Made by a program: the position numbers and the translations under genes
In this document: piece by piece, positions 9,085 to 28,865 of the stretch
Position numbering within the stretch: position 1 is the stretch's first letter
How the letters are laid out: the number at the start of each line of letters is the position of its first letter
Assembly: GCA_041489155.1 (NCBI GenBank)
Contig: JBGPQP010000005.1
Coordinates: 2,509 to 66,508, forward strand
DNA from: Candidatus Aenigmatarchaeota archaeon
GTDB lineage: Archaea; Aenigmatarchaeota; Aenigmatarchaeia; QMZP01; QMZT01
DNA: 64,000 bases
Direction: 5' to 3'
The notes under the pieces: model-generated
The model's database searches: none
What the model was told of the DNA's origin: nothing
The model's input: the letters and a program-made list of their open reading frames with translations, nothing else

Positions 9085-9089
9085 TGGCT

Positions 9090-11186: not shown

Positions 11187-11197
11187 AGTAAAACACG

Positions 11198-11629: not shown

Positions 11630-11699
11630 ATTAAATAATTGTCCAGTCTGCTATTAATACATTTGAAACAGCCATATGCATAAGAGGTGTGCATGGCAA

Positions 11700-12590
11700 T
11701 TAAGCGCTAGAATAAGCGTATGCAGGCCTCGCGAAAGTAGTTTCCAGGAAATTCCTTGCGTATTTTTTTACTGTCGAATAAGCCTCTTTAAGACTATCTG
11801 CAAACGTGTAGCTCTGAACCAAATGGGTCGGAGAAGCCAAGCCGCTTGCATCAAGGGCATCAGAAGAGCGCTCCTTGAATCTGGCGTATGTTGAAGGGTC
11901 TTTCCTGGCCCTTTCTTTGATCTGGTAATTTGTCTGAAGACCCTTCATCACCTGGTCGGTCATGCCGTCATTCAAGCCTTCAATCATCGGTATTATCGCT
12001 TTGTTGGCCAGAAGGCCGGTGAAAGGCCTGATGTATTTAGGCAGCTTTCCCGCGTCAATCATTTCGCTCAAGGCCTCTTTCGTGGCTAGGTAAAGATGGT
12101 CGATCAGGTTTTCATCCCTGTCCTTCGCTGCTTCAGGCTTCAGGTCGATTTGCGTGTACTGATGCAGTTTTTCATGCACTATCGTTTTTAGCAGGTTGTA
12201 ATACGGGTTGCTCATCATTTTGTTGTAAAGATATTGGCCAAACCTGCTGTTTGAATTTTGCAGGTATCTGCCAAATTTATAGAAAAGATTTGTCCCGGGC
12301 ACAATGTGCTCGTTGACGCCTATCCTGCTGCCATCCCCTTTTATGTAAGCACCTACAACCCCTTCGTCACCGGCTTCTAGGCTTTCTACATAAACAGGTA
12401 TGGGTAGACCCTTTTTTCTTATGCCGTTTCTGCCAAGATAATCGCCAACAACCTGCTCAGCGCTGTGAACCGCGCTCTGCACCATGCGGTTCGCTGCCGG
12501 GTTAGGACCGAAAACGGTCGTCGCTGGCATGGCTGCTATGGTCTCGTCATAAAGCGCTCTTTCAGCTCCTTGCAAGGCTAATGGTAACAC
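11700..12590 (-). CDS. Hypothetical protein with HExxH motif (possible gluzincin)
   Basis: 'TIVHEKLH' plus downstream 'IEGLND'; GTG start preceded by AGGTAGA. Confidence 0.55.
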   Translation of the reverse strand: MLPLALQGAERALYDETIAAMPATTVFGPNPAANRMVQSAVHSAEQVVGDYLGRNGIRKKGLPIPVYVESLEAGDEGVVGAYIKGDGSRIGVNEHIVPGTNLFYKFGRYLQNSNSRFGQYLYNKMMSNPYYNLLKTIVHEKLHQYTQIDLKPEAAKDRDENLIDHLYLATKEALSEMIDAGKLPKYIRPFTGLLANKAIIPMIEGLNDGMTDQVMKGLQTNYQIKERARKDPSTYARFKERSSDALDASGLASPTHLVQSYTFADSLKEAYSTVKKYARNFLETTFARPAYAYSSA

Positions 12591-12777
12591 ACAAATCTAC
12601 CTGTTTATGCTATCTGTTTGTATATTTATATACTTTTTAGTGGCAAAAATAGCTTCAATTAGCCGCCTTATAGCGGATTTGCAGGCTGTTTTAAGGCAAC
12701 GTTTAAACATTTCCTATAACATCGTTATCTATTTCTATGGGCTCGGCACAATTATTAAATAATAAGAAGATAGGAAG

Positions 12778-13665
12778 ATGGCCGATATGCTTATCCGTAA
12801 GAAGAGCCTCAAGATACAGGAAAGGCTTGGGATGAGAATAGGCGTCGCTTACGGCAGCGCCAAAATCCCCGTTGTGAAGAAGGCCAGCGACGCGCTTAAC
12901 GTACTGGAAGACCTGTACAAGGTCGGCTTCAAGGCCTTCCTCCTGCCTCGCCAGCTTTTCGACAACGTGAAGGACATGTCCGACCTGTACAAAGACCATT
13001 ACACCAACTTGCTGAGGATAAAGACCATCGCCTCCAAATACAACATCGAGCTCGCCATACACAACAATGCCATGCCCGAAGAGCCGATGCTCGACAACGC
13101 CTTCAAGATATACTGCAACATCGCGAATGTCATGGACGCGAAAACGCTTATAATCCATCCCACCTTCTATTCGCGCATGCCGCATCAGCAGGCGCTCCGC
13201 CTGACGGTGCACAAGGTAAACGAAGTCGTGAATGAGATGCGCACGAGGATGAAAATCGGCATAGAGACGACTGGAAAGATCGATGAGCTGGGCAGCGTAG
13301 AAGACGTGATAGACATGGTGAAGCGCACGACGCGAACTGAACCGATCCTCAACTGGGCCCACATACACGGCAGGGACCGCGGCCTGCTGACGCACGAATC
13401 CGATTTCAGGAGGATAATAGACAAGGTGCGCGCCGAAGTCGGGCAGCAGTGGTTGAACGACGCCTATTTCATTTTCTCCGGCGTCACTTACGAAAGGAGT
13501 GGCGCCATACAACACAAACCCATCGCAAGATCCGAAATGCGCCTCGAGCATCTCGTGAAATCCATACAGGCTCTCAGCATAAAGGGCACGCTGATTTTCG
13601 AGACGCCCAACAGGGAAGAGGACGTCGTCGACCTGCTGCAGGAGATAGGCGACATGGTCAGGTGA
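12778..13665 (+). CDS. Endonuclease IV-like TIM-barrel protein (divergent)
   Basis: 'IHP', 'ETTGK', 'WAHIHGR', 'FSG', 'FETP' follow the archaeal EndoIV pattern. Confidence 0.75.
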   Translation: MADMLIRKKSLKIQERLGMRIGVAYGSAKIPVVKKASDALNVLEDLYKVGFKAFLLPRQLFDNVKDMSDLYKDHYTNLLRIKTIASKYNIELAIHNNAMPEEPMLDNAFKIYCNIANVMDAKTLIIHPTFYSRMPHQQALRLTVHKVNEVVNEMRTRMKIGIETTGKIDELGSVEDVIDMVKRTTRTEPILNWAHIHGRDRGLLTHESDFRRIIDKVRAEVGQQWLNDAYFIFSGVTYERSGAIQHKPIARSEMRLEHLVKSIQALSIKGTLIFETPNREEDVVDLLQEIGDMVR

Positions 13666-15439: not shown

Positions 15440-15500
15440 ATGAATAATTGAATGCCAGAAATTTATAAGTTTAAAATGCAGGCGGCTCAAATAATTAATT

Positions 15501-17978
15501 ATGCAACCCAAACAGGCGGCAGTCGCAGTTTCGAGCTTCTTCGCCTGCTATCTCATATTCTCTCTGTCGTTCGTTTTGGCGTACGAGATCGGGGATTTTT
15601 TTAACGGCGGCAAGGTCAGACTGGCGCTGGAGCCGGTAATGAAGATTGTTGACGACATCAAGCCGCTTACCTGCGCCTCTTCGGGTTCGTTTATTCTGCA
15701 TGCCTATGTCGAAAACATACCAGAATTCGACATAACGGGCATAGACGCATCGGTTTACGAAGCGTCGAACGATGTCTATTACAACGTGACTTCAGCGGTC
15801 TCCTGTGGTCCGAGAACCGGCCTCATAAGCAATCAGGAATTCGCCTGCACGGTCAACGTCAAGGAGTTGCTGACCAAGCTGCCGAAATGCCCGATGGAAA
15901 TGATGGAGAACGCTTTCTACCTGACCGCTGAAATCGCTTACGGCAAAAACAAGGAGAAGGTGACCGAGTCGAAAGTCCTGACGCTCATAAGGCAGGGCAT
16001 AAAGCCGGAGATGGAAATAGACTTCGCTGTTTCCCGTCCAGCCTACCCAGTGCCTGAAATAAACTGCGTGACTGGCAGCGAGATAGACGTGCCAGTGGTT
16101 ATACGCAATGCAGAAGCCATGTTCGGCAGCATAGGCTGGTCGTATGTTGCAGGCAACATAACTTCCTCGCAGATAAGCTGCAATAAAATAATGAGCAGGG
16201 AGGACGAGGGAAGGGAGGACATATACCTCTGCATCCTGACTGTCCCCAGCACGCTGTTCCCGAAATGCGAGGACGGCACAGAAGTCACGGTCACTATAGG
16301 CGCGAGAACCAGCGAGCATAACCTCAACAGCAGCTTCACGACCGTTCTTGTTTCCGAAGAGCTCCAGCTCGCCCTGAAAGTTTCCGGCATGAAAAAGGTC
16401 GACTGCCAGATAATAGATGAGGAAGGCACCTGCGTACCCAAAGAGCCGCAGCGCAACGTCACCGTCACCATCACGGGCAACGCGCCTGAAAGGCTGAAGG
16501 TCTTCGAGAGCAAGTACAAGCTCGGCAGCGAGAAGGAGAGCACGGTTTCCTGCAGGCAGATAAGCACCAACAGATACGAATGCGCGACTTTCGTGACCAT
16601 CGACAAGCTGCCCGTCCCTGCAAGCGTAGACGAGACTACAAATGCCTCAAGGGACCTTAGCGTCACATTCGAGGTCAAGTATCTGAATTACTACAAGAGC
16701 ATAACCTCCTCGACGGATGTTACCATGGAGGGCAAGGCGCTGGACGAGCTGATAAACACGATGAAGACACTAGACGAGGAAAATAAGTTTCTGAAGGCCC
16801 TTGAAAAACTTGTAACGGCGCTCAACAATGCGATAAAAGTTGTAGACTTCGTAAGCAAATGCTGCACGTTCCCAAGCATGATAAACCAGTTGGGGCAAAA
16901 GGTAATAGGCAAGGGTGCGACCAAAAAAACCCTCAGTGAATTCGTAAAGGATTTTGTTGAAAACAAACTGGAAGAAAAACTGCTCAAGTATTTAGGTTAC
17001 GATGTTGCCCTCAAAAAAACATTTGGCACCTATGCAAAGAAGATTTTCGAGTATTTTGCCAAGGATTTCCTGAAGAAGCTCGTTCTGGACACCATTAAAC
17101 AGATAGGCGTCGATAGCATCTGGTGCATAGCTTTGGGCGGGTCAAAGGTAATTGAAGAGCAGCAAAAGAATCTTGACAAGTTCGAGAAAGGCGAAATAAA
17201 TTCAATGAATGTGCCGCAGAATTTCGGAGACTACGTGTGGGAGATGATTAAGGCCAACGCGCCGAATTGTTTTAAACAGTCCTTCTGGAACCAGTTCAAA
17301 GACACCACCAAGTTACTTGCATACCTTTGCATACTCGTGGGCGCTATTGTCACGTACTTCATTCCCGTTGCCATGAGTCTGATATGCAACTACTTGTCAA
17401 CTGGCGCAGGAGTAATCAGCCTCGTGCTAAACGTAGCAGTGATGCTCATCTCGGTGATGACCGCATGGGATGCCTACCAACGCGTGCACAAGGCAGTCGC
17501 CCTCGCGACGGAGAGAATAAACCTGCAGACCAAGGCCAGCAACATCATGCAGGAATACGCAACTGACCTCCAGAACACCATGCAGAACTTGCTCATGAGC
17601 CAGGCGGCTGCGGCGATATTCACCGAGGCTTTCAATCCCCCGATGGAAACAACAAAACTCATATTTTATTCAGACAGGACTGGCGTCTTGGGGCAGGGCG
17701 ATGACATCTGCACCGGGGATGAGATAACCATAGAGTACAATTTCGACAAGCTCAACCAGACGAGCGGCTTCACTTCGCAGTTGGCCATGACCAATTCGCA
17801 TTCGAAGACCCTGCGCTTCGACGCCCTTAACGGCACGTACGGGCCATACCAGACGGACAAGCTGCTCGGCACTGATCCCGCGAACGACCCTTCCGAGGAT
17901 TACACCTTCACCCTCTCCTACGGGAGCAGGAGGCTGGATTACAAGCTGCATTATGTTAATCATGAATGCGTCACGTAA
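15501..17978 (+). CDS. Cys-rich secreted/membrane protein: about 3 Ig-like domains, helical hydrophobic region, C-terminal beta domain (gene A)
   Basis: Signal peptide, paired Cys, NxS/T sequons, late hydrophobic helices; colinear with the C-terminal half of 21876..28865. Confidence 0.75.
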   Translation: MQPKQAAVAVSSFFACYLIFSLSFVLAYEIGDFFNGGKVRLALEPVMKIVDDIKPLTCASSGSFILHAYVENIPEFDITGIDASVYEASNDVYYNVTSAVSCGPRTGLISNQEFACTVNVKELLTKLPKCPMEMMENAFYLTAEIAYGKNKEKVTESKVLTLIRQGIKPEMEIDFAVSRPAYPVPEINCVTGSEIDVPVVIRNAEAMFGSIGWSYVAGNITSSQISCNKIMSREDEGREDIYLCILTVPSTLFPKCEDGTEVTVTIGARTSEHNLNSSFTTVLVSEELQLALKVSGMKKVDCQIIDEEGTCVPKEPQRNVTVTITGNAPERLKVFESKYKLGSEKESTVSCRQISTNRYECATFVTIDKLPVPASVDETTNASRDLSVTFEVKYLNYYKSITSSTDVTMEGKALDELINTMKTLDEENKFLKALEKLVTALNNAIKVVDFVSKCCTFPSMINQLGQKVIGKGATKKTLSEFVKDFVENKLEEKLLKYLGYDVALKKTFGTYAKKIFEYFAKDFLKKLVLDTIKQIGVDSIWCIALGGSKVIEEQQKNLDKFEKGEINSMNVPQNFGDYVWEMIKANAPNCFKQSFWNQFKDTTKLLAYLCILVGAIVTYFIPVAMSLICNYLSTGAGVISLVLNVAVMLISVMTAWDAYQRVHKAVALATERINLQTKASNIMQEYATDLQNTMQNLLMSQAAAAIFTEAFNPPMETTKLIFYSDRTGVLGQGDDICTGDEITIEYNFDKLNQTSGFTSQLAMTNSHSKTLRFDALNGTYGPYQTDKLLGTDPANDPSEDYTFTLSYGSRRLDYKLHYVNHECVT

Positions 17979-17989
17979 ACGATGATAGA

Positions 17990-19900
17990 ATGAAATTGAA
18001 TATCCGAAAGAAAGGGCAGGTGGAATTTGTCGTAATTGCAGCCCTGATAATCATAGCCATCGCTGTCATGATCCTTGCCTCGAGGCAGTTTGTCATCAAT
18101 CCGCCTGTCACGACCGGCATACCTGACGAGGCGAAGACGATAAAAGACGCCGTAATGAATCTCATAAAGGCAGGCACCAATGACAGGCTGGCACTGATAT
18201 ACAATCAGGGCGGCACCTTCAGACCAGGTTACTCCGTCAAATTCGGCATGTTCGACACGGAGGTGTGGCTGGCATGCGGCAACCAGAAAATCCCTGACGT
18301 CTCGCAGGAGATCGGCGCTGCCATACTCGATTACCTCAGGGAAAACCTGCAAGACGAGATGAATTTCTACGGTAAAAACACGCAGTTCGATTTCAGCAAA
18401 TCAAGATACGAAGTGGAGATTTTCAAGGACAAGATAAGCATCCGCATATATCTGCCGACGCTGGTTGAAGCGTATGAAATGCCGCAACCATATGAAGTCA
18501 TTGTCGACAGCAAACTTTATGATGTGCTCGAGCTTTCGAAAAACCTTGTAAAAGACGCGAGCGAAACCAGCTTCTTCGAGATGGTAACCCTGGCGACCAT
18601 GATTAATACCAATCCCGAAAATAAAACTTGGACGCCGCTCGCGGGCGCAAGGGCAGGTTGCGGCAACTACCTTTTCAGAACAAGGACACAGCTGCTGTCC
18701 GGCATAAAGGAGGTTGCCAGATACACGGCTTCTCATATCGTCTGGAACAACAGGGGTCTAAGGCTCGCAGAAAACCCGTTCTATCCGCTGACCGGAGTGG
18801 GCGGCAAAGATTATTCCGACATGGATGTTATGTTTTCCTATCCCACTTCATGGGACTCAGAAATGGACAAATATTTCACTTTTTCACCGGATCCGCTGCG
18901 CGTCATACCAAAACCGCCCATACCCCTCGTACCCTTCTGCATGAGTTCCTATGCCGTGAGTTACAACCTGCGTTATCCGATAATCGTCATGGTGCATGAC
19001 TCGATCCTCAATCAATGGCTCAAATTCGGGGTCATGGTCAACATAGAAGACACCGCTCCTGGAAACTGCTCCGTGCAGATGGGCAATGCGTCGCAGTACG
19101 CAAAGCTTTGCATAAGCAACGCCAAATGCGATGCGGAAATAAAGGTCAAGAACACCACAGGAGACCTGATGCAGGGCGTTGACGTCGGCTTCTACATATG
19201 CGACCTAGGCACCACGAACGAAAAAGGCGTGGTTGAAGGCAAAATTCCGTGCATGATAAGCGAGTTGAGCGCCTTCAAACCCGGTTACAAGAGCTATGGC
19301 GATTTGGTATCCTCGGATGATTTGAAGGACAAGACTGTGAAGATGACAAGGGTCGCCGAGAACATATCGATATATATGAAAGGCCTTAAAACATACGCCT
19401 CAGGCGACGGTTTGGACGGCACTGACGATGACGGCAAATACGCTAACTATGCCGTTGTTGACAAGGCCAAAGACATAGCTGACCTAGGTTATGATGAATT
19501 CGACCTGAACCTGACAACCACCATCGCCTTCTCGCCGGCCGACCCGAACTATTTTACAGGTGAGGACACGCCGCTTGTTATACTGAACTATGACAACAAC
19601 TGGAATGCGGTGTCAGCGGTGAATGTTTCCGGTCTGCTGCCGATAGGATATAACATATTAGTTGCTGTAAACACGGAAGACGGTGACGACAGCCTGCCGG
19701 TTGGCTTCCTCAATACATCATACACGCTACAGGAAGGCCAGACATCGCTTTACTTTTACATACCAGTCGTGGTCAAGGGGGACGGCCTTTTTGATCTGGA
19801 TGCACCCGGCATCGACGCCAGCGAGGCCGACCAGCTGACAAACCTTGCCATAAGCACCTGCGGCGCGGCAATCAGCAAGGACGAAATCACAACTTGCTGA
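17990..19900 (+). CDS. Large type IV pilin-like protein with class III signal peptide (gene B)
   Basis: 'RKKG/QVEFVVIAALIIIAIAVMIL' then 'YNQGG'; paralog of the next gene. Confidence 0.75.
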   Translation: MKLNIRKKGQVEFVVIAALIIIAIAVMILASRQFVINPPVTTGIPDEAKTIKDAVMNLIKAGTNDRLALIYNQGGTFRPGYSVKFGMFDTEVWLACGNQKIPDVSQEIGAAILDYLRENLQDEMNFYGKNTQFDFSKSRYEVEIFKDKISIRIYLPTLVEAYEMPQPYEVIVDSKLYDVLELSKNLVKDASETSFFEMVTLATMINTNPENKTWTPLAGARAGCGNYLFRTRTQLLSGIKEVARYTASHIVWNNRGLRLAENPFYPLTGVGGKDYSDMDVMFSYPTSWDSEMDKYFTFSPDPLRVIPKPPIPLVPFCMSSYAVSYNLRYPIIVMVHDSILNQWLKFGVMVNIEDTAPGNCSVQMGNASQYAKLCISNAKCDAEIKVKNTTGDLMQGVDVGFYICDLGTTNEKGVVEGKIPCMISELSAFKPGYKSYGDLVSSDDLKDKTVKMTRVAENISIYMKGLKTYASGDGLDGTDDDGKYANYAVVDKAKDIADLGYDEFDLNLTTTIAFSPADPNYFTGEDTPLVILNYDNNWNAVSAVNVSGLLPIGYNILVAVNTEDGDDSLPVGFLNTSYTLQEGQTSLYFYIPVVVKGDGLFDLDAPGIDASEADQLTNLAISTCGAAISKDEITTC

Positions 19901-19962
19901 TTTTGCTCATTTTTAGACATATTGAAACGCCAAAAAGACATGCCTGCGCCTGTGTGGTACAT

Positions 19963-19975
19963 GAAAAGGTTATAA
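19963..19975 (+). promoter_or_regulatory. Putative BRE-TATA promoter for gene B'
   Basis: GAAAAGGTTATAA about 25 nt upstream of ATG 19999. Confidence 0.5.
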
Positions 19976-19998
19976 GTGATACTATGAAATATTATTAT

Positions 19999-21873
19999 AT
20001 GTATTCCCGCAGGAAGGGACAGGTGGAATTCATAGTCGTCGCTGCCCTGATTGTCATCGGCATAGCCGTCGTCATTCTCGCCTCAAGGCAGGCCATTATC
20101 ACCCCTCCTGTTGTGACAGGTGTAACCGAGGAAGCCAAGACCGTGAGGGATTCTGTAAGCAATCTGATAAGGGCGGGCGTGAAAGAAAACCTGCAGATAT
20201 TGTATAACCAGGGAGGCCTGCTTGATGTCGGGCCTTCGATAAGGTTCGGCATGTTTGAGACGTCTATCTGGTCTTTCTGCGGCGAAACAGACATACCTGA
20301 TGTTTCCAGCGAACTTAACAACGGCCTTCTCGCCTATCTCAACCAGAACCTTCAGGACAATCTCGACAGCAACGATGAGATGGAATTCTCTGGCGTAAAG
20401 GCCAAGTTCGATTTCAGCGAAGTGAGCTCCAAAGTTGAGATAATAAAGGACAGAATCGTGGTCAGGGTCAACCTTCCGACGGAAATTGGCACATACCAGG
20501 TTCAGCAGCCATACGAGGTTTCGGTGAACTCGAAACTCTATGATATCCTGGATTTCTCAAATAATTTCGTAAGCGAAGTGGGCAAGGACAAGTATTTCGA
20601 ACTCTGCACGATACAAAACATGCAGCATTCAGATGCGCCGATGATGGGCGTGATTTCCGACTGCGGCAAAATCGTGCACATGACAAGGGCGCAGACCCTG
20701 CCCGTCGCTAAGGGTGTCGCGAATTATGTCATTTCTCACACCGTGTGGAACAAGCAGCCTGTGTATATGGAAAGAAATCCGCCCTGTCCGCCGATCAACA
20801 GCGTTGGCGACAAGATATATCCCGGCCTGGAGGTCGCCTTTGCCTACCCGCCGTCATGGGATTCCGAGATGGACAGGTACTTCAACATGTATCCTGACCC
20901 GGCGATATTCGTCCCGCAGCCCATAGGCTCGCTCATACCCGTCTGCATGACTCCTTACAGCATTTTCTACTCCTTCCGCTATCCTGTCATTGTTATGGTC
21001 GAGGACTCGACGCTCGACCAGTGGTTCAAGCTTGCCATGATGATCGAGATAGAGAACAACGAGCCGGGCTCATGCTTCGGCTATCTGCAGGAGGAATCAG
21101 AGTACAACAACAGATGCAAAGAAGATGTAACCTGCGATGCCACCATAAGGGTAAAGGATTCCGAAGGTAAACCTGTGGAAGGCGTCGATGTGTTGTTTTC
21201 AATATGCAACATAGGCACTACAGACAGCGAAGGAAAAGTCGAGAGCAAAATACCCTGCATAATCAGCAACCTGAGGGTATACAAGGAAGGCTACAGGAGC
21301 TACGGGGAAAGCATGCTGTCCTTCGGAGACATGGTAGACAAGAACATAACGCTGCAGAAAACCGCAGGCTCGGTGACAATCCATCTGAAGGGCCTCAGGA
21401 CCATGGCCTATGGCAGCGAGGGCGGAGGCAAATTCAGCAGTTACCAAGTCACTGAAAGCGCGAAGGATATCAGCGAGCTTAACGACAAGCTTCTGGTGCT
21501 CGTCTCTTTCACGCCGGCGCAGCCTGACCAGATGTCAAACATGGATCTCGAAATATACGCTACAAACCTCGAGGAAGAAACATACACTGATACGATAGCT
21601 TCCGAAGGCCTCCAGCCCATAAAATACAATGTCAGCGTGAGCGCCGAGGACTTCAGCAATGAAACCTCGACTTCGGTTGTAAGCCTGCTGAGCACCTCAT
21701 TCGAGCTGAAGGAAGGGGAGAAGGACATTTATATTTATCTGCCGGTCGTGCTCAAGACGGAGACGGGTGATATAGAAGCTCCTGGCATAGACGTCTCGGA
21801 AACAGGCCAGCTGACTGATGTTGCTGTAAGCCGCTGCGGCTCGGCGGTAAGCGCTACAGAAAGGTCGTGTTGA
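19999..21873 (+). CDS. Large type IV pilin-like protein with class III signal peptide (gene B')
   Basis: 'RRKG/QVEFIVVAALIVIGIAVVIL'; shares 'SWDSEMD', 'RYP', 'KIPC', 'APGID' with gene B. Confidence 0.75.
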   Translation: MYSRRKGQVEFIVVAALIVIGIAVVILASRQAIITPPVVTGVTEEAKTVRDSVSNLIRAGVKENLQILYNQGGLLDVGPSIRFGMFETSIWSFCGETDIPDVSSELNNGLLAYLNQNLQDNLDSNDEMEFSGVKAKFDFSEVSSKVEIIKDRIVVRVNLPTEIGTYQVQQPYEVSVNSKLYDILDFSNNFVSEVGKDKYFELCTIQNMQHSDAPMMGVISDCGKIVHMTRAQTLPVAKGVANYVISHTVWNKQPVYMERNPPCPPINSVGDKIYPGLEVAFAYPPSWDSEMDRYFNMYPDPAIFVPQPIGSLIPVCMTPYSIFYSFRYPVIVMVEDSTLDQWFKLAMMIEIENNEPGSCFGYLQEESEYNNRCKEDVTCDATIRVKDSEGKPVEGVDVLFSICNIGTTDSEGKVESKIPCIISNLRVYKEGYRSYGESMLSFGDMVDKNITLQKTAGSVTIHLKGLRTMAYGSEGGGKFSSYQVTESAKDISELNDKLLVLVSFTPAQPDQMSNMDLEIYATNLEEETYTDTIASEGLQPIKYNVSVSAEDFSNETSTSVVSLLSTSFELKEGEKDIYIYLPVVLKTETGDIEAPGIDVSETGQLTDVAVSRCGSAVSATERSC

Positions 21874-21875
21874 AT

Positions 21876-24800
21876 ATGAGAATAAAGAATTGGCAGTTAT
21901 TGGCGCTCCAGATTATAGCTGTATTTTGTTCTTATCTTATATGGAGTACCACGGGCGCCACAGCGCTCGAGATAAGGATATTCACTTCCGGCGGGCAGCA
22001 GTCGACGACGACCATACCGAAGTTCTCCGACATGATACAGAAGGAGCTGTCCTACCCGTACCAGCAGAACTACCAGTATTTGGAGATGAAGCTCTCGAGC
22101 AAGAGTGCCTCTTATGTCATAAAGAAGATTTATCTCTTCAGATGCAAGGACCTGGACCCGGTCAGCTGCATAGAGAAAGGAGTTAATCCTGTCATATCTG
22201 TCAATCCGGGCAGCTCGAGTCTGGTTTTCGACGAGACCTACAAATGGGACGACGTCAGCTCGAACAACGTGGGCAACTTCCTGGCCATGGTGAAGCTCGA
22301 CATCGCAGGCAAGGAAGTATGGACGAGCAGCTGGGACAAGGTAACGAAGACAGGCATAAGGAATTTCTACAATGAAAACAACGACGTCGACAGGCTTGAC
22401 CTTTATATCAAGGGTGCTTCAGCGGATGTCGCGACGAGCTATATTGAGAACTATTATGCCATTCCCTCCGACCAGATGAGCCGCTCCATTTTCGAGAGCG
22501 TCGGAGGCTCGGGCGTGACGAAGCTTTACGATCTTTCCGGCAACAAAGACAGGCTTGACCCATCCGGCACGGGGATCCCTTCCCTGAAATTCAGCAGTAT
22601 GTCCGGCAATATTTTCAACAAGAGCACGGACACGTGGGACTTCATAATCGCTGCTGATGGCAAGGCCGGCAACCCTGTCGTTTTCTACTCGACTGAGGCC
22701 GGTCCTCCTATCACGGGCGGCGCTAAGCTTGTCATTGATGACTGGTCGCCGCAGATAGTCACGTGCTACAGCGGCGAGGTAATCAAAGCGACCATGCATG
22801 CGGAGAACGCCAGTAGCATCGGCTACTTCCAGTCTTATTATTACACTATTGATGGCGTGAAGGCTAACGAGGGCACGATGACCTGTTCGCTCGTGAGCCC
22901 GAATGCCAGCATCTATTCCTATCAGTGCTCGATCCCCGTCGAAACCTTCCCGGCGTGCACTGCCCCGGGCACATCGACGATAAAGGTATTTTTCAATTAC
23001 CAGGGAGGCGTCCAGCTCTCCGGCAGTTTTCCCGTCACGCTTAAAGCGCCGAGTCCATCGATAAGCGTGACTTCTCTTTCCCCAACGCCATTCGACTGCG
23101 GCATAGACAACGAGATAACGGCGAAACTGCAGGTTTCAAACCCCGGAGAAGGCGCACCAGAGATGGAGTACACTTTTGACGGAGAAAATTTCAACACCCT
23201 GACCTGCACGGGCTCCGGCGGCAGCTACACCTGCACCGTTCCCGAGAGCAGGATATGCGAGCTTGTCCAGGAGAGCCTTTCGCTCGTGTTCAAATTCACT
23301 TACGGCGAAACGGAGGTGCTTTCCCTGCCTTCCACGATACTTGTCACCTTCCCGCCTCCCAGTGTGGGCATTGACACGGTAACGCCGCAGGCGATCGACG
23401 CGGACAAGACCACTGCCGTGAGCGTCCTGCTGCACGTGAATTACCCTGACTTCATCACGTACAACGAAAACAATTTCAACTACAAATATCTTGACAAGCC
23501 TTTCGCGCCCGCCACGTGCACGCTCGAGACTTCCTATTCCAACATAAAGTATTACCGCTGCAATGTCGCTCTTGCAATTCCCAGCGGCAGACAGGGTGTC
23601 GAAACTCTTGCGTTCAGGCTGGACGGCTTCGCTGAAGGCAAGCCCAAGCAATTGACAGCCAATGCCTTCTACGAAATCATGCAGCCCCCGCCCGAGCCGA
23701 GGTTCACGATAATCTCCACGTCCTCGCCGGTCGACTGCACTGCCGACAATTTCCTGACGGTAAATATCAAGGCAGAGAACGTCGACATGACTACGCTGCA
23801 CGAAAAGGTGGAGTACACCACGAACAGTTCCGGCTATTACTATGCGCCGTGCACCGCCAGCGCAAATATCATGACATGCTCGTTGCCTGCAAAGGACTTG
23901 TGCGACCAGATGCAAAACGTTCTTGGGATACAGTTCAGGCATATGGTCGTAACCGCAGACAAGAACAAGACCTATTACAGCAATTCCCAGAAGGTATATT
24001 TCAATTTGCCAGAGCCGCACATGCAGGTTTACGCGGTGAGTCCGGATTCGTTGCCGGCGGGGGCGAAGACCGCTGCGACGGTCAGCCTTTACCTGCAGTA
24101 TCCTAACATGGTCGGTAGCAGCCCGGCATTCCTGTACACTTATTTAGGCAAAATCAACCAGAAGATGACGTGCACGAAAGTCTCCTCGACCGCCAACCGC
24201 GACTTCTACGACTGCGCGAACACGAACTTCGAGATTCCTGCCGACTACTCGGAAAGCGATGTGCCGGTTGTCTTCTCGGTGCAGGGCACGACCATCTCCT
24301 TCCCGTTCACTATACCCGTGGTAGCGCTGAGCAAGATAAATCCCTGGCTAGAAATCGTTGCCTCGACCCCGTCCCGCATAGAAGTCGTCCAGGGCAACGA
24401 GACTTCAGCTTCATTCTACGTGACGATACACAATGCCGCCGAAAGCGAGCTTAAGCATCAGGCAACAGTCATAACGAACAGCATGATAGCCAGCGGCACC
24501 TGCAAGGAGGCGGACGTGGTGTATGACTTCAACTGCGATGTCAAGATAAAGGCATCCAAGACGACGAATGTCGGCGCTAATACAGCCAACCTCACCCTGA
24601 GGGTGGAGGGCAAGAAGACATATGATGTGACGAACTCGACCACTGTTTACGTCCTCGGCGAGCAGGCGAGAGTCGACATACAAAGCGCCTCGCCGGAGAC
24701 GCTTTACTGCGAGGGCAACAAGCAGCAGAACCCGGACGCCGTCAAGATCACAGCCAACGCGAAGAACGTCGCGAGTTTCACGGTCCTTGAGGAGCAGATA

Positions 24801-27800
24801 AGCTTCAATGAGCTGACCATAGACCACACCGCCAAATACTGCTCCCAGCAGGCGCAGACCATCACCTGCAATATTCCGACAGACAAGCTCTTTGAAAAGG
24901 TGACCTGCGGCCAAGACGAGCTTGCGCCTGGCCAGGGTTCGAAGTATTATCCGCTTACCCTGACATTCCTTGTCAGGGCGGGCAACGAGCAGCTGACGAT
25001 TTCAGGCACGAAGGACATATCCGTCTCAGCGAGACCGCTGGAGCCCTACCTGGACATTGTTGACAACGACATCTCAGGTGGAACGCTTCAGAACCCGATA
25101 AACTGCCTCGGTTCCAAGTCGATAAAGCTCGGCGACAGCGGCTACGTCAGGATAATGTACGCCGACCTGCTGCACCCCGAGCCCAAGGAAGACGACCTCG
25201 TGTGGTCCTACAAGCTTGAGGCTCAGGACGACAAGGGCAAACTGACCCAGGGCACGGGCGTGTCGCCTGAAGCGAACGCGACAGTTTGCAAATTCATTAC
25301 CTATCAAAAAGTCGGGACCCATCGCATAGAAGACTATGAATGCTCCCTTTACGTGACCAGCAAGATGTTCCAGAGATGCGAGATGGGCGAAGGCACGATA
25401 AAGCTTTACGCTTCTTCCGGCACGGGTAAGAAGGCCGAGGGAGTCTTCGATATCTATGTTATAAGGGACGAGAGCCCGTACCAGATAGAGATGGAAATCC
25501 TTGGCACGCCGCCGAAGGACATAAACTGCCAGATACAGACAGACGACGGGCAGTGCACTCTCGCTTCCTATTCGCAGCTCAACGTCAGCCTGAGGATTTA
25601 CAACAGGAATGCTGACGTCGGCATCCCGGACCTGCAGGTTTACGATTTCGACGCCAACCTCACAGGCAAAACCGTCAACGCCAACCTGAGGTCGCTGGGC
25701 AACTGCCAGAAGACTTCGCAGGAGGCCAACAAGTATATCTGCCCCTTCGAGATAGGCCCGACCATAAAGCTGCCGGACACGCCGGAATACAAGATAAACA
25801 AGGAGAACCCCGACACGCAGGAGTTCCCACCCATTTCCCTCGGCGCAGTGCAGGTCGCCGTTTACATAAAATACCTTGACAACAAGGTGCAGAAGACGCT
25901 GACCGCGAACGACGGCACCATAACCATCCACCCGAAGCTGCTCGACAGCTACATCGACTACCTGAAGAGGCTGAAGGAGGCGCAGGACGCCTACAACAAG
26001 ACGAAGGCTATCATGGTCACTGCGATAAGGTTCCTTTCCCTGTGCGCGACCTGCGTGATGGTCAACAAGTTCATGAAGGAGATATTTGGCGATGCTCCGA
26101 GCATATGCAACAGCGACAATGACTGCACGAAAAACGACCCGAATGCCAAGTGCGTGGGCAACCAGTGCATGGGGACCACAGGAGGTCAAAACAGCACTCA
26201 GAACCAAAATTCTGCATCTGCGTTGAAGACACAATGCGAAAATTGCATAAATGGCGGCGGATGCTGGTGCAAAAATGACAACAAATGCGGCAACACTGTC
26301 GGTTCTAACTGCGTGCAGCAAAGCCCGGCGCCATTTCTTATTTGCACTGCTATGTCTTGCGGTTCATATTATACGGCCGCTAATTCCCCGTCCGACTACC
26401 AGCCCGAGACCAGCGGAGCGAAACTAGCTGGTTCAGCTGTCGCAGCCGATTTCGCCGGTGAGAGCGGAGACGAAGGATTGTATCAGCCTGAGACGAGTAC
26501 GCTAAACTTTGCATCATCAACCAGCCCCAAAGGAGATTGTGAGCGAACTGGACCCAACCCAGCTAATGGTTGTACAGTTTCATTAGAAGTGGTGATGAAT
26601 AAACCTTTCGCTGGCGATTATTTTGGTGTATATGCCCGAGCTAAATGCGACAAAATGGAAGAGGTTTCCGCACCTTTGATAAAAATAACCGATAAAAAAT
26701 CAGGCACAGTCATTGTTGATGCAACTCCAAGTTCTAAATGTAGAGGCCCATGGGGCAGTAAAGACTATGAGTGCATGGTTAAGGTCAACTACCCCAAGTC
26801 CGGTGAACAGACGTTGGAAGCACAACTTTATGCTTATGAAAAAGACCAATTGTTTGGCCTAGTTACCATGCAAGAAGAAATTTATAAATGCGAAGGCGTA
26901 AACACGAGACTTACATTTAATGTTTTCGAGTCGGTCGATTGCAACACGTATGCGCAGAAAGTTGCAAAATCAAATGTTAAGATCTATGGCTACTGCGCCT
27001 CGAATGACGATCAGTGCAACAATGTTTGTGCACAAAAAGGAAAAGAGGCTACTGCATCTTGGGCATGGCCACCAGACGGAAACAAATTAAAGGAATTTAC
27101 AGAACAAAATCTACCTTGTGGCGATCAAGCAGCATGTTGCGCCTGCAAGGACAAGGAGCCCGAAACCTTCGGCTCCTGCGCCGCTCCCTGCGGCAGCGAA
27201 AAATGCTATGACAGCACGAAGGACAAATGCCCGGAAGGCAAGGAGTTCAAGGATGACTGGTGCTCCGGAGGGGCGAACATCAAATGCTGCGTTCCAACGG
27301 GAACGCCTAACAAAAGCGGAGACGCTACGAACTCGCCGCCCCAGTGCAAGCCGCCGTGCAATAACGTCAATTCCGGCCAAGAATGCAGATGCGAAGGCTA
27401 CTGTTTGTGCACTGATAGCAAAGGCGTGAAAACTTACATAGCCAAGGGCGTGAAGTGCGACGAAAATGCAGCTCCGAATGCAGCTTTACCCGCAGTAACA
27501 GGAAACGCCCCCGGAAGTGCAGGAGCAGCCGCGCCTGCGGCGCTCGACCTGACCAGCATAAAGACCCAGTTTGACAATTTTGGAGATTACTTCAGCTCAG
27601 GCAACTGGTGGAAAGTTGTCATAGGTGCCCTGGGGATAGCACTGCTCATCCTGCTTGTCGCTACTAAACTATTCAAGTGGTTTGAGGAAAAGGAAGGAGA
27701 AAGCGAATACACCTCGGCGCTTAAATGGGGCATTAAATGGGGCATAGTATGCGGCGCGGCAGCGCCGCTCATCGAGGCAGTCTTCCCGAAGGAGCAGAAA

Positions 27801-28865
27801 GGCACGGCAGGCGACATAAGCAACGTGCTGCAGAAGATTCTCAACTTCCCTTACAAGGTGTGCAAGTTCCTGATGGACAACCTCAGCACCATAATGATGC
27901 TGGTCAACATCTACTTCCAGTACCAAATGTTCGAGTATTGCATGAAGAACCTCGAGGACAGGGTTAGGCAGACGTATAACTATGGGGCGGCGTCTACCAC
28001 CAGCGCAGCCGCCTCCCAAGCGTATAGCTCCGTCAACATGGCCAATGAGATGATGCAGTGCTTCAGCATGATGAAGGACATGACCTGCATGGCGATGGGA
28101 GCCTTCAACTCGCTTACCTTCTCGGGTCAGGGGATATTCAGCGACGGCGTTATGGAGGTAACACAGGATGGTTCAAGGAAGAAAACAGGCGACACCATTT
28201 ACAACGGGAAGCTGGAGGTAAGGGTTTCCGGCTTCTGCGAGAAGGTCGGCAGAAACGGCAAATACCAAGTCAGCATAACGGCGGTAATGGAGGACGGGAC
28301 GACCAAGGTATGTAAACCTGCTGATTATAACTGCGGCTCGAGCGGCGTCTATACTCCGTATTACACGCAGTCATATTATCCGTCGTATTATTCGTCATAT
28401 GGTTCCAGCTATGGTTCCAGCAGCGGCTGCAGCCAATACATGAGCTATAACCCGAGCTCCGTCAACCAGAACATCCTTACCCTTTATATGCAGGACACCA
28501 ACGACTGGAACATCTGTGAAAGCGGAGGCACGATAAAGAAAGTGAGAATTGAGGGCCCGTGGGACCCGGTTGTGTTGAACTTCGCGAAGAAGGGAGGAAC
28601 GACGCCCACCACCAAAAAGAAATCCGGCGACACATGCGCAAATAATGTAGACTGTGAATCTGTCGTTTGTTGCTATACATCTTGGAATGACCTCACAATA
28701 ACCGGTAAAAAAGTTTGCGTCAATGATCCGGTTGCATGTATATGCAAATATCCTGCCACTTCGGGCATTGGGTTATGTAAAGGGGAAGATTATAAAAATG
28801 CTACTACGCCAACATGCGACGGAAAAGCGGAATGCCCGAACGAAAAGTATTATTGCTGCCGGTAG
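21876..28865 (+). CDS. Giant (about 2330 aa) Cys-rich surface protein with about 9 Ig-like repeats, Cys-rich inserts and a hydrophobic helical region (gene A')
   Basis: Signal peptide; recurrent 'SP..l.C' repeat starts; TM-like 'WWKVVIGALGIALLILLVATKLF'. Confidence 0.8.
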   Translation: MRIKNWQLLALQIIAVFCSYLIWSTTGATALEIRIFTSGGQQSTTTIPKFSDMIQKELSYPYQQNYQYLEMKLSSKSASYVIKKIYLFRCKDLDPVSCIEKGVNPVISVNPGSSSLVFDETYKWDDVSSNNVGNFLAMVKLDIAGKEVWTSSWDKVTKTGIRNFYNENNDVDRLDLYIKGASADVATSYIENYYAIPSDQMSRSIFESVGGSGVTKLYDLSGNKDRLDPSGTGIPSLKFSSMSGNIFNKSTDTWDFIIAADGKAGNPVVFYSTEAGPPITGGAKLVIDDWSPQIVTCYSGEVIKATMHAENASSIGYFQSYYYTIDGVKANEGTMTCSLVSPNASIYSYQCSIPVETFPACTAPGTSTIKVFFNYQGGVQLSGSFPVTLKAPSPSISVTSLSPTPFDCGIDNEITAKLQVSNPGEGAPEMEYTFDGENFNTLTCTGSGGSYTCTVPESRICELVQESLSLVFKFTYGETEVLSLPSTILVTFPPPSVGIDTVTPQAIDADKTTAVSVLLHVNYPDFITYNENNFNYKYLDKPFAPATCTLETSYSNIKYYRCNVALAIPSGRQGVETLAFRLDGFAEGKPKQLTANAFYEIMQPPPEPRFTIISTSSPVDCTADNFLTVNIKAENVDMTTLHEKVEYTTNSSGYYYAPCTASANIMTCSLPAKDLCDQMQNVLGIQFRHMVVTADKNKTYYSNSQKVYFNLPEPHMQVYAVSPDSLPAGAKTAATVSLYLQYPNMVGSSPAFLYTYLGKINQKMTCTKVSSTANRDFYDCANTNFEIPADYSESDVPVVFSVQGTTISFPFTIPVVALSKINPWLEIVASTPSRIEVVQGNETSASFYVTIHNAAESELKHQATVITNSMIASGTCKEADVVYDFNCDVKIKASKTTNVGANTANLTLRVEGKKTYDVTNSTTVYVLGEQARVDIQSASPETLYCEGNKQQNPDAVKITANAKNVASFTVLEEQISFNELTIDHTAKYCSQQAQTITCNIPTDKLFEKVTCGQDELAPGQGSKYYPLTLTFLVRAGNEQLTISGTKDISVSARPLEPYLDIVDNDISGGTLQNPINCLGSKSIKLGDSGYVRIMYADLLHPEPKEDDLVWSYKLEAQDDKGKLTQGTGVSPEANATVCKFITYQKVGTHRIEDYECSLYVTSKMFQRCEMGEGTIKLYASSGTGKKAEGVFDIYVIRDESPYQIEMEILGTPPKDINCQIQTDDGQCTLASYSQLNVSLRIYNRNADVGIPDLQVYDFDANLTGKTVNANLRSLGNCQKTSQEANKYICPFEIGPTIKLPDTPEYKINKENPDTQEFPPISLGAVQVAVYIKYLDNKVQKTLTANDGTITIHPKLLDSYIDYLKRLKEAQDAYNKTKAIMVTAIRFLSLCATCVMVNKFMKEIFGDAPSICNSDNDCTKNDPNAKCVGNQCMGTTGGQNSTQNQNSASALKTQCENCINGGGCWCKNDNKCGNTVGSNCVQQSPAPFLICTAMSCGSYYTAANSPSDYQPETSGAKLAGSAVAADFAGESGDEGLYQPETSTLNFASSTSPKGDCERTGPNPANGCTVSLEVVMNKPFAGDYFGVYARAKCDKMEEVSAPLIKITDKKSGTVIVDATPSSKCRGPWGSKDYECMVKVNYPKSGEQTLEAQLYAYEKDQLFGLVTMQEEIYKCEGVNTRLTFNVFESVDCNTYAQKVAKSNVKIYGYCASNDDQCNNVCAQKGKEATASWAWPPDGNKLKEFTEQNLPCGDQAACCACKDKEPETFGSCAAPCGSEKCYDSTKDKCPEGKEFKDDWCSGGANIKCCVPTGTPNKSGDATNSPPQCKPPCNNVNSGQECRCEGYCLCTDSKGVKTYIAKGVKCDENAAPNAALPAVTGNAPGSAGAAAPAALDLTSIKTQFDNFGDYFSSGNWWKVVIGALGIALLILLVATKLFKWFEEKEGESEYTSALKWGIKWGIVCGAAAPLIEAVFPKEQKGTAGDISNVLQKILNFPYKVCKFLMDNLSTIMMLVNIYFQYQMFEYCMKNLEDRVRQTYNYGAASTTSAAASQAYSSVNMANEMMQCFSMMKDMTCMAMGAFNSLTFSGQGIFSDGVMEVTQDGSRKKTGDTIYNGKLEVRVSGFCEKVGRNGKYQVSITAVMEDGTTKVCKPADYNCGSSGVYTPYYTQSYYPSYYSSYGSSYGSSSGCSQYMSYNPSSVNQNILTLYMQDTNDWNICESGGTIKKVRIEGPWDPVVLNFAKKGGTTPTTKKKSGDTCANNVDCESVVCCYTSWNDLTITGKKVCVNDPVACICKYPATSGIGLCKGEDYKNATTPTCDGKAECPNEKYYCCR

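Follow-up and report, generated by a model that had tools for sequence, protein, structure and literature searches.

What might be built by four abutting genes for large exported proteins, two of them with the N terminus of a pilin precursor, when none of the four falls into a named family? The question is raised by a cluster in the genome of a Candidatus Aenigmatarchaeota archaeon, an organism that is tiny and probably symbiotic; no member of the Aenigmatarchaeota was reported as cultivated in the literature searched. The cluster lies within the window analysed here, a stretch of 64,000 nucleotides (nt) of contig JBGPQP010000005.1. Its named homologues come from Aenigmatarchaeota, which bears out the DPANN origin proposed in an earlier sequence-only reading of the same DNA. 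We refer to the genes, in order, as A, B, B' and A':

15441–15500, + strand, AT-rich spacer of 60 bp between a divergent nucleotidyltransferase gene and A, read from the sequence
15501–17978, + strand, gene A, open reading frame (ORF) of 825 amino acids (aa)
17966–19900, + strand, gene B, ORF of 644 aa
19894–21873, + strand, gene B', ORF of 659 aa
21867–28865, + strand, gene A', ORF of 2332 aa

The four ORFs share the + strand and abut with successive overlaps of 7–13 nt as listed, just as that reading had described them: tightly spaced and co-oriented. Translation of B probably starts at 17990, downstream of the ORF start, because the database copy of the protein (P0005) has 636 aa. Likewise, B' probably starts at 19999, downstream of its ORF start, because its database copy (P0032) has 624 aa and the family alignment is concordant. 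The start of A' is probably 21876, the first ATG of its ORF. A TTTATAA-like box in the spacer, about 25 nt 5' of the ATG of gene A, marks a possible archaeal promoter, from which the operon transcript may be leaderless or carry a short leader. None of the 11 sequencing runs listed is of RNA.

Pilin-like and stalk-like proteins of the cluster

B and B' had been put forward as full-length paralogues with class III signals, and both halves of that claim hold. The two proteins are identical at 276 of 636 positions (43%, E = 0), and both carry K-G-Q-V-E-F at the N terminus (KKG followed by QVEFVVIAALIIIAIAVMILAS in B; RRKG followed by QVEFIVVAALIVIGIAVVILAS in B'). We take the FlaFind-type class III motif to be a short charged leader ending in [KR]-[GA] and directly followed by a hydrophobic stretch of at least about 20 residues, a pattern that both proteins display. 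All 30 aligned members of the B family retain the K, Q and E of a K-G-Q-x-E motif, and the −1 residue is G in 28, A in one and S in one; the leader before the motif varies in length, and a hydrophobic helix of about 25 aa comes after it. These sequence features support the assignment of B and B' as putative class III (prepilin-like) proteins. Neither protein matched PF04021 (Class_IIIsignal) or PF07790 (Pilin_N) in Pfam at E ≤ 1, or any such family in NCBIfam. Two Peptidase_A24 matches in the genome (C6:50184–50519 and C22:2682–2993) exceed the Pfam cut-off, and the genome encodes many further short N termini in which [KR][GA] precedes Q.

The predicted structure of B (mean pLDDT 88.2, pTM 0.72) divides the protein as follows:

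N terminus, hydrophobic helix, then a Pro-rich linker
about 52–375, alpha/beta head
384–465, transthyretin/CarboxypepD_reg-like domain
467–605, beta-sandwich
C terminus, helix with a terminal Cys

The model places the first helix at 17–42, a low-confidence Pro-rich linker at 40–50 and a second helix at 52–80, followed by strands. With such a linker, B could serve as a membrane anchor no less readily than as a filament subunit. Fold searches with B, which were dominated by residues 384–605 and barely sampled 52–375, revealed no pilin fold in the head; a match at Z 12.0 (r.m.s.d. 2.0 over 79 residues) is confined to B 386–467. In the ESM Atlas, B 9–380 scored 0.91 to Nanobdellota clusters of about 295 aa, a resemblance that we treat as a lead only, and a search for shorter B relatives returned a single fragment of 310 aa. 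Two other roles for B were considered and rejected: these fold searches and the family scans gave no match to a bindosome-type substrate binder, and the family alignment contained no catalytic-looking set of invariant residues that would mark an enzyme.

The outer genes encode Ig-rich proteins of very different length. A comprises:

N terminus, Sec-type signal or N-terminal helix
about 45–413, three Ig-like domains
420–711, helical module with an invariant Cys-Cys at 454/455 and hydrophobic helices at 602–659
719–819, C-terminal Ig-like domain

and A' comprises:

N terminus, Sec-type signal, then an additional stretch of about 930 aa that contains Ig-like repeats
931–1406, A-like core of three Ig-like domains and the first long helix with C1393/C1396
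about 1410–1900, Cys-rich insert
1912–1940, hydrophobic helix, with a weaker second one
C-terminal to these, helical region, beta region and Cys-rich tail

By BLASTP, A and A' are only weakly related (E 3e-6, 23% identity over 265 aa). The significant profile alignment whose absence had been named as evidence against the original proposal is provided by hhalign, which equates A 44–472 with A' 931–1406 (probability 99.7%, E 1.8e-25, 412 columns). The motif pairs from which colinearity of A with part of A' had been deduced (EINC/PINC, LFPKCEDG/MFQRCEMG, VDCQIIDEEGTC/INCQIQTDDGQC and VKYLN/IKYLD) are matched to each other in this alignment, and the shared region is larger than had been claimed. 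An A profile search of the genome matched A' at 7.6e-17. In a plain hmmsearch with the A profile, the window's own A' was absent at E ≤ 1e-3, and the same search picked up nine full-length and three contig-truncated A' proteins of relatives. Ig-like repeats, also foreseen, were confirmed within A' residues 290–830 as units of about 105–110 aa that match one another down to E 5e-16.

The model of A is less certain (mean pLDDT 73.5), and the helical module is of low confidence, with pLDDT < 50 at 455–528 and 598–642. Hydrophobic helices were another element of the sequence-only reading. They are present in A (602–632 and 631–659) and in A' (1912–1940), and a strong hydrophobic segment follows the first helix in 10/10 A' orthologues, but the claim does not extend to the whole superfamily: the hairpin of A is missing from one of 16 A homologues and from the subfamily that we call A''. 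An alignment of 24 A-family representatives has six invariant cysteines in and around the helical module, and cysteines are numerous throughout the cluster (97 in A', 21 in A, 10 in B and 14 in B'). Signal peptides, high Cys content and fast evolution point to a surface location for all four proteins.

Apart from generic Ig-like or transthyretin-like domains, no counterpart of the four proteins turned up among curated families or solved structures. Nothing scored above the cut-offs in Pfam or NCBIfam, including any pilin, class III or adhesin family, and the best Pfam match, CarboxypepD_reg in B' (E 9e-4), was below cut-off. Sequence-profile searches of the PDB with the B and A alignments reached E 0.028 at best and found no solved-structure relative, and A 415–825 had no meaningful match in the ESM Atlas (best score 0.75). 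With A, Foldseek against the PDB, VIA-align and Foldseek against a viral library returned generic Ig-like or helical-bundle matches only, tandem Ig-like ones alone in the viral library, with the helical module barely sampled; with B, Foldseek against the PDB and VIA-align returned generic Ig-like or transthyretin-like matches only.

Conservation of the gene order and ties to small pilin-like genes

A synteny survey found 16 related loci with an A-B-A' or A-B-B-A' layout, four with a paralogous pair, B''-A'', and six (type-3) in which small pilin-like genes are followed by B and A'. In all 26 loci outside the window, the next same-strand gene after B belongs to the A superfamily. A'' was recognized by profile from its last Ig domain and first helix, which match A' (E 3.7e-10), and from its C-terminal beta domain, which matches A (E 1.6e-5); the homology of A'' and A was not significant by BLASTP and emerged only with profiles. 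The B profile is present in 68 of the 72 sampled genomes of one Aenigmatarchaeota order and in 3/228 from the rest of the phylum. The co-occurrence in other genomes on which the original proposal depended is therefore order-wide. The number of B paralogues per genome is two to four, and the A-type partner, between 450 and 2300 aa in length, differs from one paralogue to the next.

In a quick tree of the B family, B' and P0031 nest inside the type-1 B clade, and the B' duplication is confined to this lineage. The four-gene layout is a local duplication variant of a three-gene A-B-A' layout. Of the A-B-B'-A' apparatus first described, the gene association is real, but the four-gene form is only a local elaboration. 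Between the same loci, identity is 24–50% for A, 35–57% for B and 36–64% for A'. In the eight type-1 loci that also carry the flanking genes, the corresponding values are 34–50%, 39–57% and 47–64%, compared with 66–90% for the flanking AP-endonuclease-like, nucleotidyltransferase, polyprenyl synthase and KaiC genes, so A, B and A' diverge more quickly than the genes around them.

In sister families, B and A' are the last genes of an operon with five or six small pilin-like genes, and B directly follows small class III-like genes in five of the six type-3 loci (L023, L024 and L027–L029; not L025). All six small pilin-like proteins of L027 have orthologues in the present genome, five of them collinear at C2:77656–81106 and another at C4:39284–39688; two small neighbours of B in L027 gave sub-threshold matches only (PF04021, E 0.082; PF07790, E 0.011). 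A putative link between the module and pilins is supported by this gene order, because the sister-family B and A' close the small pilin-like operon. In this genome the A-B-B'-A' cluster is not adjacent to small pilin-like genes. A T2SSE ATPase gene and two T2SSF genes lie at window positions 37668–41286, and such a set occurs at a similar distance from the module in three other genera; the assembly ATPase gene closest to A' lies 8.8 kb downstream of it, beyond housekeeping genes. Three separately encoded sets may be parts of one putative apparatus: the A-B-A' cluster, the B''-A'' pair and the operon of small pilin-like genes.

A predicted B''–A'' complex and the explanations it bears on

Complex prediction was carried out on the genome's third pair, the paralogous B'' (residues 40–605) and A'' (28–457) from contig C6, which stands in for the window's own proteins. 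The pair scored an ipSAE of 0.83 (runs 0.81, 0.83 and 0.84) versus 0.00 for the best of three controls. In a benchmark that is only a rough guide here, the alignments being custom ones, 58 of 80 solved complexes attained the 0.83 mark, as did 2 of 110 mismatched pairs. Agreement between the runs covers at least 87% of contacts, and the pLDDT of the partners is at least 82. Recall of a known complex is an unlikely source of the score, because no solved-structure relative was found by sequence profile. The predicted interface is centred on a helix common to A, A' and A'' and includes A'' 145–180, which aligns with A' 1356–1400. Conservation gives it no support (0.47 at the predicted interface of B versus 0.54 in the rest of the protein; 0.65 versus 0.64 for A''). 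The prediction for the paralogous pair supports the heteromeric complex that the sequence-only reading had envisaged and corrects it on one point: the first long helix, the one ending in Cys, is predicted to be the B-binding surface instead of a membrane element.

On balance, we favour the explanation that the four genes specify a lineage-specific surface complex related to type IV pilins, with pilin-like B as the holder of Ig-stalk partners of the A type and cell contact as the probable purpose. Behind it stand results computed here: paralogy within the cluster, synteny across the order, the class III motif, A24 peptidase genes in the genome and the predicted B''–A'' interface. B and B' would be exported as class III (prepilin-like) precursors and probably cleaved after K-G by one of the two A24 peptidases. 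The hydrophobic helix left after cleavage, beginning with Q-V-E-F, would fix the mature proteins in the membrane or within a short assembly resembling a pilus, which may be built together with the five or six small pilin-like proteins. Each B-type protein would bind an A-type partner, with A/B and B'/A' as the presumed pairs in the window, through contacts between the alpha/beta head and beta-sandwich domains of B and the helical module of the partner, chiefly the first of its long helices beyond the last Ig domain. Stalks of Ig-like domains, three in A and many more in A', would be the contribution of the A-type partners, and hydrophobic helices probably also tether A and A' to the cell's own membrane. 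Once assembled, this would be a surface device rich in disulfides and quick to evolve, its role most likely adhesion or cell contact.

A different view of the same proteins is that A and A' are membrane-anchored, Ig-rich wall proteins or local wall remodellers, with B as an anchoring partner and its pilin-like N terminus a mere anchor, comparable to the two-component SlaA/SlaB layer of Sulfolobus; we consider this unlikely. Near-universal presence in the order (68/72) is what would be expected of a core envelope part, and the arrangement of A (signal, three beta-sandwich domains, long helix, hydrophobic helices) recalls SlaB, which we presume to consist of beta-sandwiches, a long helix and a membrane helix. 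SlaB (8qox_B) is indeed among the fold matches of B (Z 10.1, r.m.s.d. 2.2, 80 residues aligned), but the match covers one generic 80-residue sandwich to which many unrelated proteins align equally well. With A, hundreds of generic Ig-like matches were obtained; the S-layer chains 4aq1_C and 8c8m_A are two of them, with query TM-scores of 0.12, and the fold searches yielded no specific S-layer match of the kind that had been named as speaking against the original proposal. No MSTP-type S-layer gene was detected in this genome (89.65% complete), as would suit a cluster that itself supplies the wall, and the available parts of two surveys describe S-layer-like Ig-fold proteins within archaeal type IV filament loci (PMC13705601, PMC4858521). 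Against this, the accessible portion of Johnston et al. predicts MSTP-like S-layer proteins, of a different fold class, for Aenigmatarchaeota (bioRxiv 10.1101/2024.05.28.596244). In Pfam, PF07752 (MSTP) matched none of A, B, B' and A', and it was above cut-off in 0/301 genomes of the phylum, so it is uninformative either way on S-layer distribution. Several other large secreted proteins of the genome could form an S-layer, and multiple B paralogues with partners of such differing size fit adhesin-like diversification better than a single lattice protein.

The hydrophobic helices invite readings directed at a second cell. A-B-A' might be the contact organ of the order, in which B sits on a short pseudopilus of the five or six small pilin-like proteins and carries the A-type proteins, whose Ig stalks reach the partner cell and whose disulfide-locked helical module releases its hydrophobic hairpin into that cell's membrane. 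We regard this as very unlikely; if true, it would be a protein-built bridgehead without a described parallel in any domain of life, and would give direct access to the way in which DPANN cells initiate contact with hosts. Highly improbable, in our judgement, is membrane attack proper, in which A and A' conceal a hydrophobic hairpin within a bundle formed by their helical module, much as colicin, Bcl-2 or the diphtheria toxin T-domain do, and insert it into the host membrane, with B and the Ig stalk presenting it at a distance. The hydrophobic pair at A 602–659 does lie between long amphipathic helices and is followed by an extracellular-type Cys-bearing domain; the six invariant cysteines would suit such a device; and the available text of PMC11291902 documents host cell-to-cell contact in cultivated members of other DPANN phyla. 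Yet no pore-forming, fusogen or translocon fold appears among the listed matches of A, whose helical module is modelled with low confidence; that part reaches only Z 7.3–7.8 to generic or designed helical bundles, below the level that is meaningful for helices, and the viral library gave tandem Ig-like matches alone. Moreover, the hydrophobic helices are absent from one of the 16 A homologues and from the whole A'' subfamily, and the first helix is predicted to bind B. It is barely credible that the genes are cargo derived from a mobile element or virus, or that the four simply adjoin, unrelated and without a shared function. They are unannotated, fast-evolving and Cys-rich, as is common in island cargo, but they are flanked by housekeeping genes (nucleotidyltransferase, cytidylate kinase and AP endonuclease upstream; polyprenyl synthase and KaiC downstream) that are syntenic across many genera, and their GC content (about 50%) resembles that of the surroundings. 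The window contains no tRNA gene, no integrase-family match was found among the neighbouring ORFs scanned, and the distribution tracks taxonomy, with an A-type gene after B in all 26 loci outside the window. We rejected the mobile-element origin as contradicted by synteny and distribution.

Relation to described systems and significance

The pilin-related surface complex that we favour has relatives on the level of layout. The sequence-only reading could name no described system of this kind, but comparable layouts are predicted in other archaea, as the available part of PMC4858521 shows. According to it, type IV pilus loci of Thermoproteales clades 4B and 4G encode predicted small minor pilins and a large signal-peptide protein ('adhesin or minor pilin') (PMC4858521; updated PMC13705601), together with a large Cys-rich 'S-layer-like' protein with a C-terminal TM (Makarova, Koonin and Albers 2016, PMC4858521). 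The sister-family operons share this parts list (small class III proteins, a large class III B and a very large, Cys-rich, Sec-signal A' with C-terminal hydrophobic helices), and conserved cysteines occur throughout both. The differences are that Pfam and NCBIfam revealed no sequence or family link to A, B, B' or A', and that here the large proteins are encoded away from the ATPase, platform and small pilin-like genes, with an extra A paralogue and a duplicated B. The Thermoproteales sets, too, are predictions without experiments.

Makarova et al. (2016) likened the archaeal sets to bacterial minor-pilin operons with PilY1, in the available part of their paper (PMC4858521). On paper, FimU-PilVWXE plus PilY1 of Pseudomonas aeruginosa does resemble the present case, as a small pilin-like set encoded with a large Sec-exported non-pilin partner (here A') to carry or prime. 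A and A' had no Pfam match to the PilY1 C-terminal beta-propeller or DUF2341, and the model of A contains Ig-like and helical parts only. Unlike A and A', PilY1 presumably lacks hydrophobic helices of its own, and in the present system direct binding is predicted for B, a giant pilin-like protein.

The Sulfolobales bindosome, described in the accessible part of PMC13705601 as class III sugar-binding proteins, which are not themselves filament subunits, and 'functionalised' type IV filaments, likewise has a large globular protein with a pilin-type N terminus, displayed on or anchored by type IV filament machinery. B differs in having no similarity to substrate-binding proteins and no ABC transporter nearby, and in its predicted pairing with an Ig-stalk protein. 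SlaA/SlaB of Sulfolobus (PDB 8QOX) are also encoded by two adjacent genes, for a large beta-sandwich-rich surface protein and its partner, but B has a class III signal, several paralogous pairs occur per genome, and the sole structural match is the generic 80-residue sandwich. Cluster 2 DPANN have conserved loci of type IV pilus and coiled-coil proteins next to CpaF/TadC (Hamm et al. 2024, PMC11291902, as available in part). They belong to the same superphylum, and the same idea is raised there, of pilus-linked helical surface proteins mediating host contact; the A-B-A' module, by contrast, has no internal ATPase or platform gene, and its proteins are not described in the accessible text.

The analysis brings into view a module that is near-universal in one archaeal order, fast-evolving and absent from the family libraries and structure collections searched. 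It comes with a specific prediction, that a giant pilin-like protein binds an Ig-stalk partner through a defined helix, and offers concrete targets for antibodies, pull-downs, cryo-ET labelling and heterologous expression. The module may be a further example of proteins with class III signals that display large non-filament cargo.

Gene order, paralogy and domain structure

Contig C5, which holds the window in a 1.13-Mb genome (89.65% complete) whose named relatives are all Aenigmatarchaeota (DPANN phylum), encodes four + strand open reading frames (ORFs) that fill 15501–28865 and are, as the sequence-only reading had it, tightly spaced and co-oriented. As listed, neighbouring ORFs overlap by 7–13 nt; with later starts for B, B′ and A′ the four genes still nearly abut. 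The spacer before A is a putative promoter.

Genes of the A–B–B′–A′ cluster
Directly upstream of gene A: AT-rich spacer, 60 bp, with a TTTATAA-like box
Begins 15501, +: gene A, ORF of 825 aa, Ig-stalk-like surface protein
Start placed at 17990 from database copies and the family alignment, +: gene B, ORF of 644 aa, pilin-like
Start placed at 19999 on the same grounds, +: gene B′, ORF of 659 aa, pilin-like
Start placed at 21876, ends 28865, +: gene A′, ORF of 2332 aa, Ig-stalk-like surface protein

B and B′, previously described as full-length paralogues, share 43% identity across their entire length. BLASTP detects a weak match between A and A′ (E = 3e-6), and alignment of a 16-sequence A profile with a 10-sequence A′ profile (hhalign) places A 44–472 on A′ 931–1406 (probability 99.7%, E = 1.8e-25), confirming that A is colinear with part of A′; every A/A′ motif pair quoted in the sequence-only reading is matched to its counterpart in this alignment. 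A's three Ig-like domains and its first long helix, as far as the conserved cysteines, all fall within the homologous stretch. A plain hmmsearch with the A profile at E ≤ 1e-3 matched the A′ proteins of relatives, 9 of them full-length and 3 contig-truncated, and did not list the window's own A′, on which a profile search of genomes with the same A alignment scored 7.6e-17. The Ig repeats claimed for A′ are also present, since units within residues 290–830 match each other (down to E = 5e-16); the protein carries a repeated Cys-rich module as well.

Curated families (Pfam, NCBIfam) do not match A, B, B′ or A′, and a sequence-profile search of solved structures found no relative. Confidence is high for the structure model of B (mean pLDDT 88.2, pTM 0.72) and lower for that of A (mean pLDDT 73.5). 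For the Ig-like, sandwich and helical parts, fold searches yielded nothing beyond generic matches.

Domains in the structure models of B and A
B 17–42: hydrophobic helix
B between this helix and the head: Pro-rich linker, low confidence
B about 52–375: alpha/beta head
B 384–465: transthyretin/CarboxypepD_reg-like domain (fold match, Z 12.0, rmsd 2.0, 79 residues aligned)
B thereafter: second sandwich, then C-terminal helix
A N terminus: helix
A 45–413: three Ig-like domains
A 420–711: helical module, pLDDT below 50 in part
A thereafter: C-terminal Ig-like domain

In a protein-language-model search, B residues 9–380 (window 17990–19105) lay near Nanobdellota clusters of ~295 aa (score 0.91, 203 of 256 features shared). 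DPANN may widely encode a shorter relative of B's head; a sequence search for it did not confirm this lead.

Class III signals and conserved layouts

Class III signals, the prepilin-type signal peptides cut by Peptidase_A24 after [KR]-[GA], had been proposed for B and B′. An alignment of 30 B sequences shows no variation at K, Q and E of the motif K-G-Q-x-E, and the residue preceding Q is G in 28, A in one and S in one. Leaders of varying length precede the motif and a membrane helix follows it; such an invariant motif looks like a peptidase recognition site, which a plain signal anchor would not need. The genome has two Peptidase_A24 genes and many other short [KR][GA]↓Q N termini. B has no match to the Pfam models for class III signals and pilins, and its class III membership therefore rests on motif and context, which together support the proposal.

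A scan of species-representative genomes found 25 loci encoding a B relative, which together with a third copy on contig C6 of the window's genome make 26, in three layouts.

Layouts of the 26 B loci
Type 1, 16 loci: A–B–A′, or A–B–B–A′ in L012 and L020
Type 2, 4 loci, including C6 of the window's genome: B″ (about 600 aa), then A″ (about 450 aa)
Type 3, 6 loci, sister families: B and an A′-like protein of 983–1807 aa

In 26/26 loci the next gene 3′ of B, in the same orientation, is an A-superfamily member, so the expected co-occurrence of A- and B-type genes holds in other genomes. The A′ profile matches all type 1 loci and four type 3 loci; a type 3 A′ profile matches L023 (4e-216), L025 (5e-43) and type 1 A′ proteins; and an A″ profile from which L022 and L026 were left out matches both at about 1e-36. 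A″ also aligns with A′ 1208–1400 (E = 3.7e-10), and its alignment with A (E = 1.6e-5) falls in the C-terminal domain of the latter. At least one hydrophobic segment lies within the helical module in 15/16 A homologues, a strong one occurs in 10/10 A′ orthologues, and none besides the signal peptide is found in the four members of the short A″ subfamily. Type 1 loci adjoin the same upstream housekeeping genes as the window's cluster, and B′, which nests within the type 1 B clade of a quick tree, is a local duplication.

In type 2 loci, the divergent upstream gene encodes a Cys-rich Peptidase_C25-like protein (E = 6.8e-11). The C6 module (6944–13350) encodes a B″ of 605 aa with the N terminus KA↓QVEF and an A″ of 457 aa without hydrophobic helices, divergent from a 1060-aa protein of this kind; in sister families A′ is followed by a 480-aa secreted protein, a homologue of which lies nearby at C6 4600–6069 (−).

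Small genes with class III-like N termini precede B in five of the six type 3 loci, L025 being the exception. The full run in L027 and L028 encodes 131, 195, 156–162, 371–388, 169 and 170–177 aa, and L029 keeps only the last. All six L027 proteins have orthologues in the window's genome, five at C2:77656–81106 in the same order and one at C4:39284–39688, which argues that the B/A′ end of the operon moved, and gained A, in the window's family. No assembly genes lie alongside these small genes at either site.

Among 301 sampled genomes of the phylum, the B profile occurs in 72, the window's included: 21/22, 3/3, 9/11, 35/35 and 0/1 by family within the window's order, and 3/228 outside it. Full-length A is found only in the window's family (20/22 genomes). 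Flanking AP-endonuclease-like, nucleotidyltransferase, polyprenyl synthase and KaiC genes are 66–90% identical between loci; in the same comparisons identity is 24–50% for A, 35–57% for B and 36–64% for A′ (34–50%, 39–57% and 47–64% in the eight type 1 loci that also have the flanking genes). The module is inherited vertically, belongs to the core of the order and evolves fast, as is usual for surface proteins.

Other genes in the window

A type IV filament locus occupies 36501–42172, with a 211-aa gene bearing a KA↓Q class III-like N terminus, a 150-aa gene that weakly matches DUF7266, an ATPase (T2SSE + PilB3_C), a DUF63 membrane protein and two T2SSF genes for the platform. Three other genera of the family likewise encode an ATPase of about 600 aa at 10–17 kb downstream of B. 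Directly after the locus, a 1136-aa ORF (42181–45591, −) without a Pfam or NCBIfam match is a possible surface or S-layer candidate; an open-ended ORF of > 871 aa at 1–2616, cut by the window edge and with no match beyond a weak DUF11-repeat one, is possibly a large surface protein. The last gene of a glycosylation/envelope block (2609–10531, including a flippase-like protein, epimerase, PMT-type glycosyltransferase, GT2 and LPG_synthase_TM) is short and archaeosortase-like (Exosortase_EpsH, E = 1.2e-15), a hint that the cell may sort some of its surface proteins through a C-terminal signal. At 32767–34668 (−), a class V aminotransferase (cysteine desulfurase-like) has a Pfam match split in two; at 633 aa it is longer than expected for its family and may therefore carry an insertion or fusion.

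A predicted pilin-related surface complex

Complex prediction on the smallest complete pair, B″(40–605) and A″(28–457), scored 0.83 (runs 0.81, 0.83, 0.84), with the best of three controls at 0.00. Of solved complexes 58/80 reach this level, and of mismatched pairs 2/110, counts that apply only approximately because the prediction used our own alignments. The runs share at least 87% of contacts with partner pLDDT of at least 82, and the prediction supports B″–A″ binding. The modelled interface is large (about 350 contacts), involving residues 192–316 and parts of the sandwiches of B″ and helices 145–180 and 236–344 of A″; helix 145–180 aligns with A′ 1356–1400 and, by extension, A 420–470. It counts against the prediction that conservation at interface positions is no higher than elsewhere in either protein.

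A type IV pilin-related surface complex accounts best for these results. Its B-type proteins would be processed like pilins and be held in the membrane, or else join the small pilin-like proteins in a short pilus-like assembly, each B-type protein holding an A-type Ig-stalk partner via the partner's helical module; A and A′ probably have their own anchors too. Relevant passages of the literature predict, for Thermoproteales, type IV pilus loci in which minor pilins go with a large signal-peptide protein and a large Cys-rich C-terminal-TM protein (Makarova et al. 2016, PMC4858521), and describe cluster 2 DPANN loci for pili and coiled-coil proteins (Hamm et al. 2024, PMC11291902) and class III proteins acting as displayed cargo (2026 survey, PMC13705601). 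Full-text searches and the passages cited here gave no description of the A, B or A′ families or of their pairing, and within that literature the A–B–A′ surface module is undescribed.

An S-layer-like canopy is unlikely. For Aenigmatarchaeota, MSTP-like S-layers are predicted (Johnston et al., bioRxiv 10.1101/2024.05.28.596244). In the 2026 survey, many archaeal type IV filament loci include Ig-fold proteins of adhesin-like and S-layer-like kinds (PMC13705601). We give little credence to a device that would target a partner cell by inserting into a membrane. Least credible, and very improbable, is that the four genes are island cargo or unrelated neighbours.

The four genes picked out by the sequence-only reading are real and form a conserved surface module, and the mechanism of the proposed pilin-related complex is partly supported by computation. 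From the architecture of the proteins, their rapid evolution and the group's biology, we infer that adhesion or cell contact is its likeliest role.
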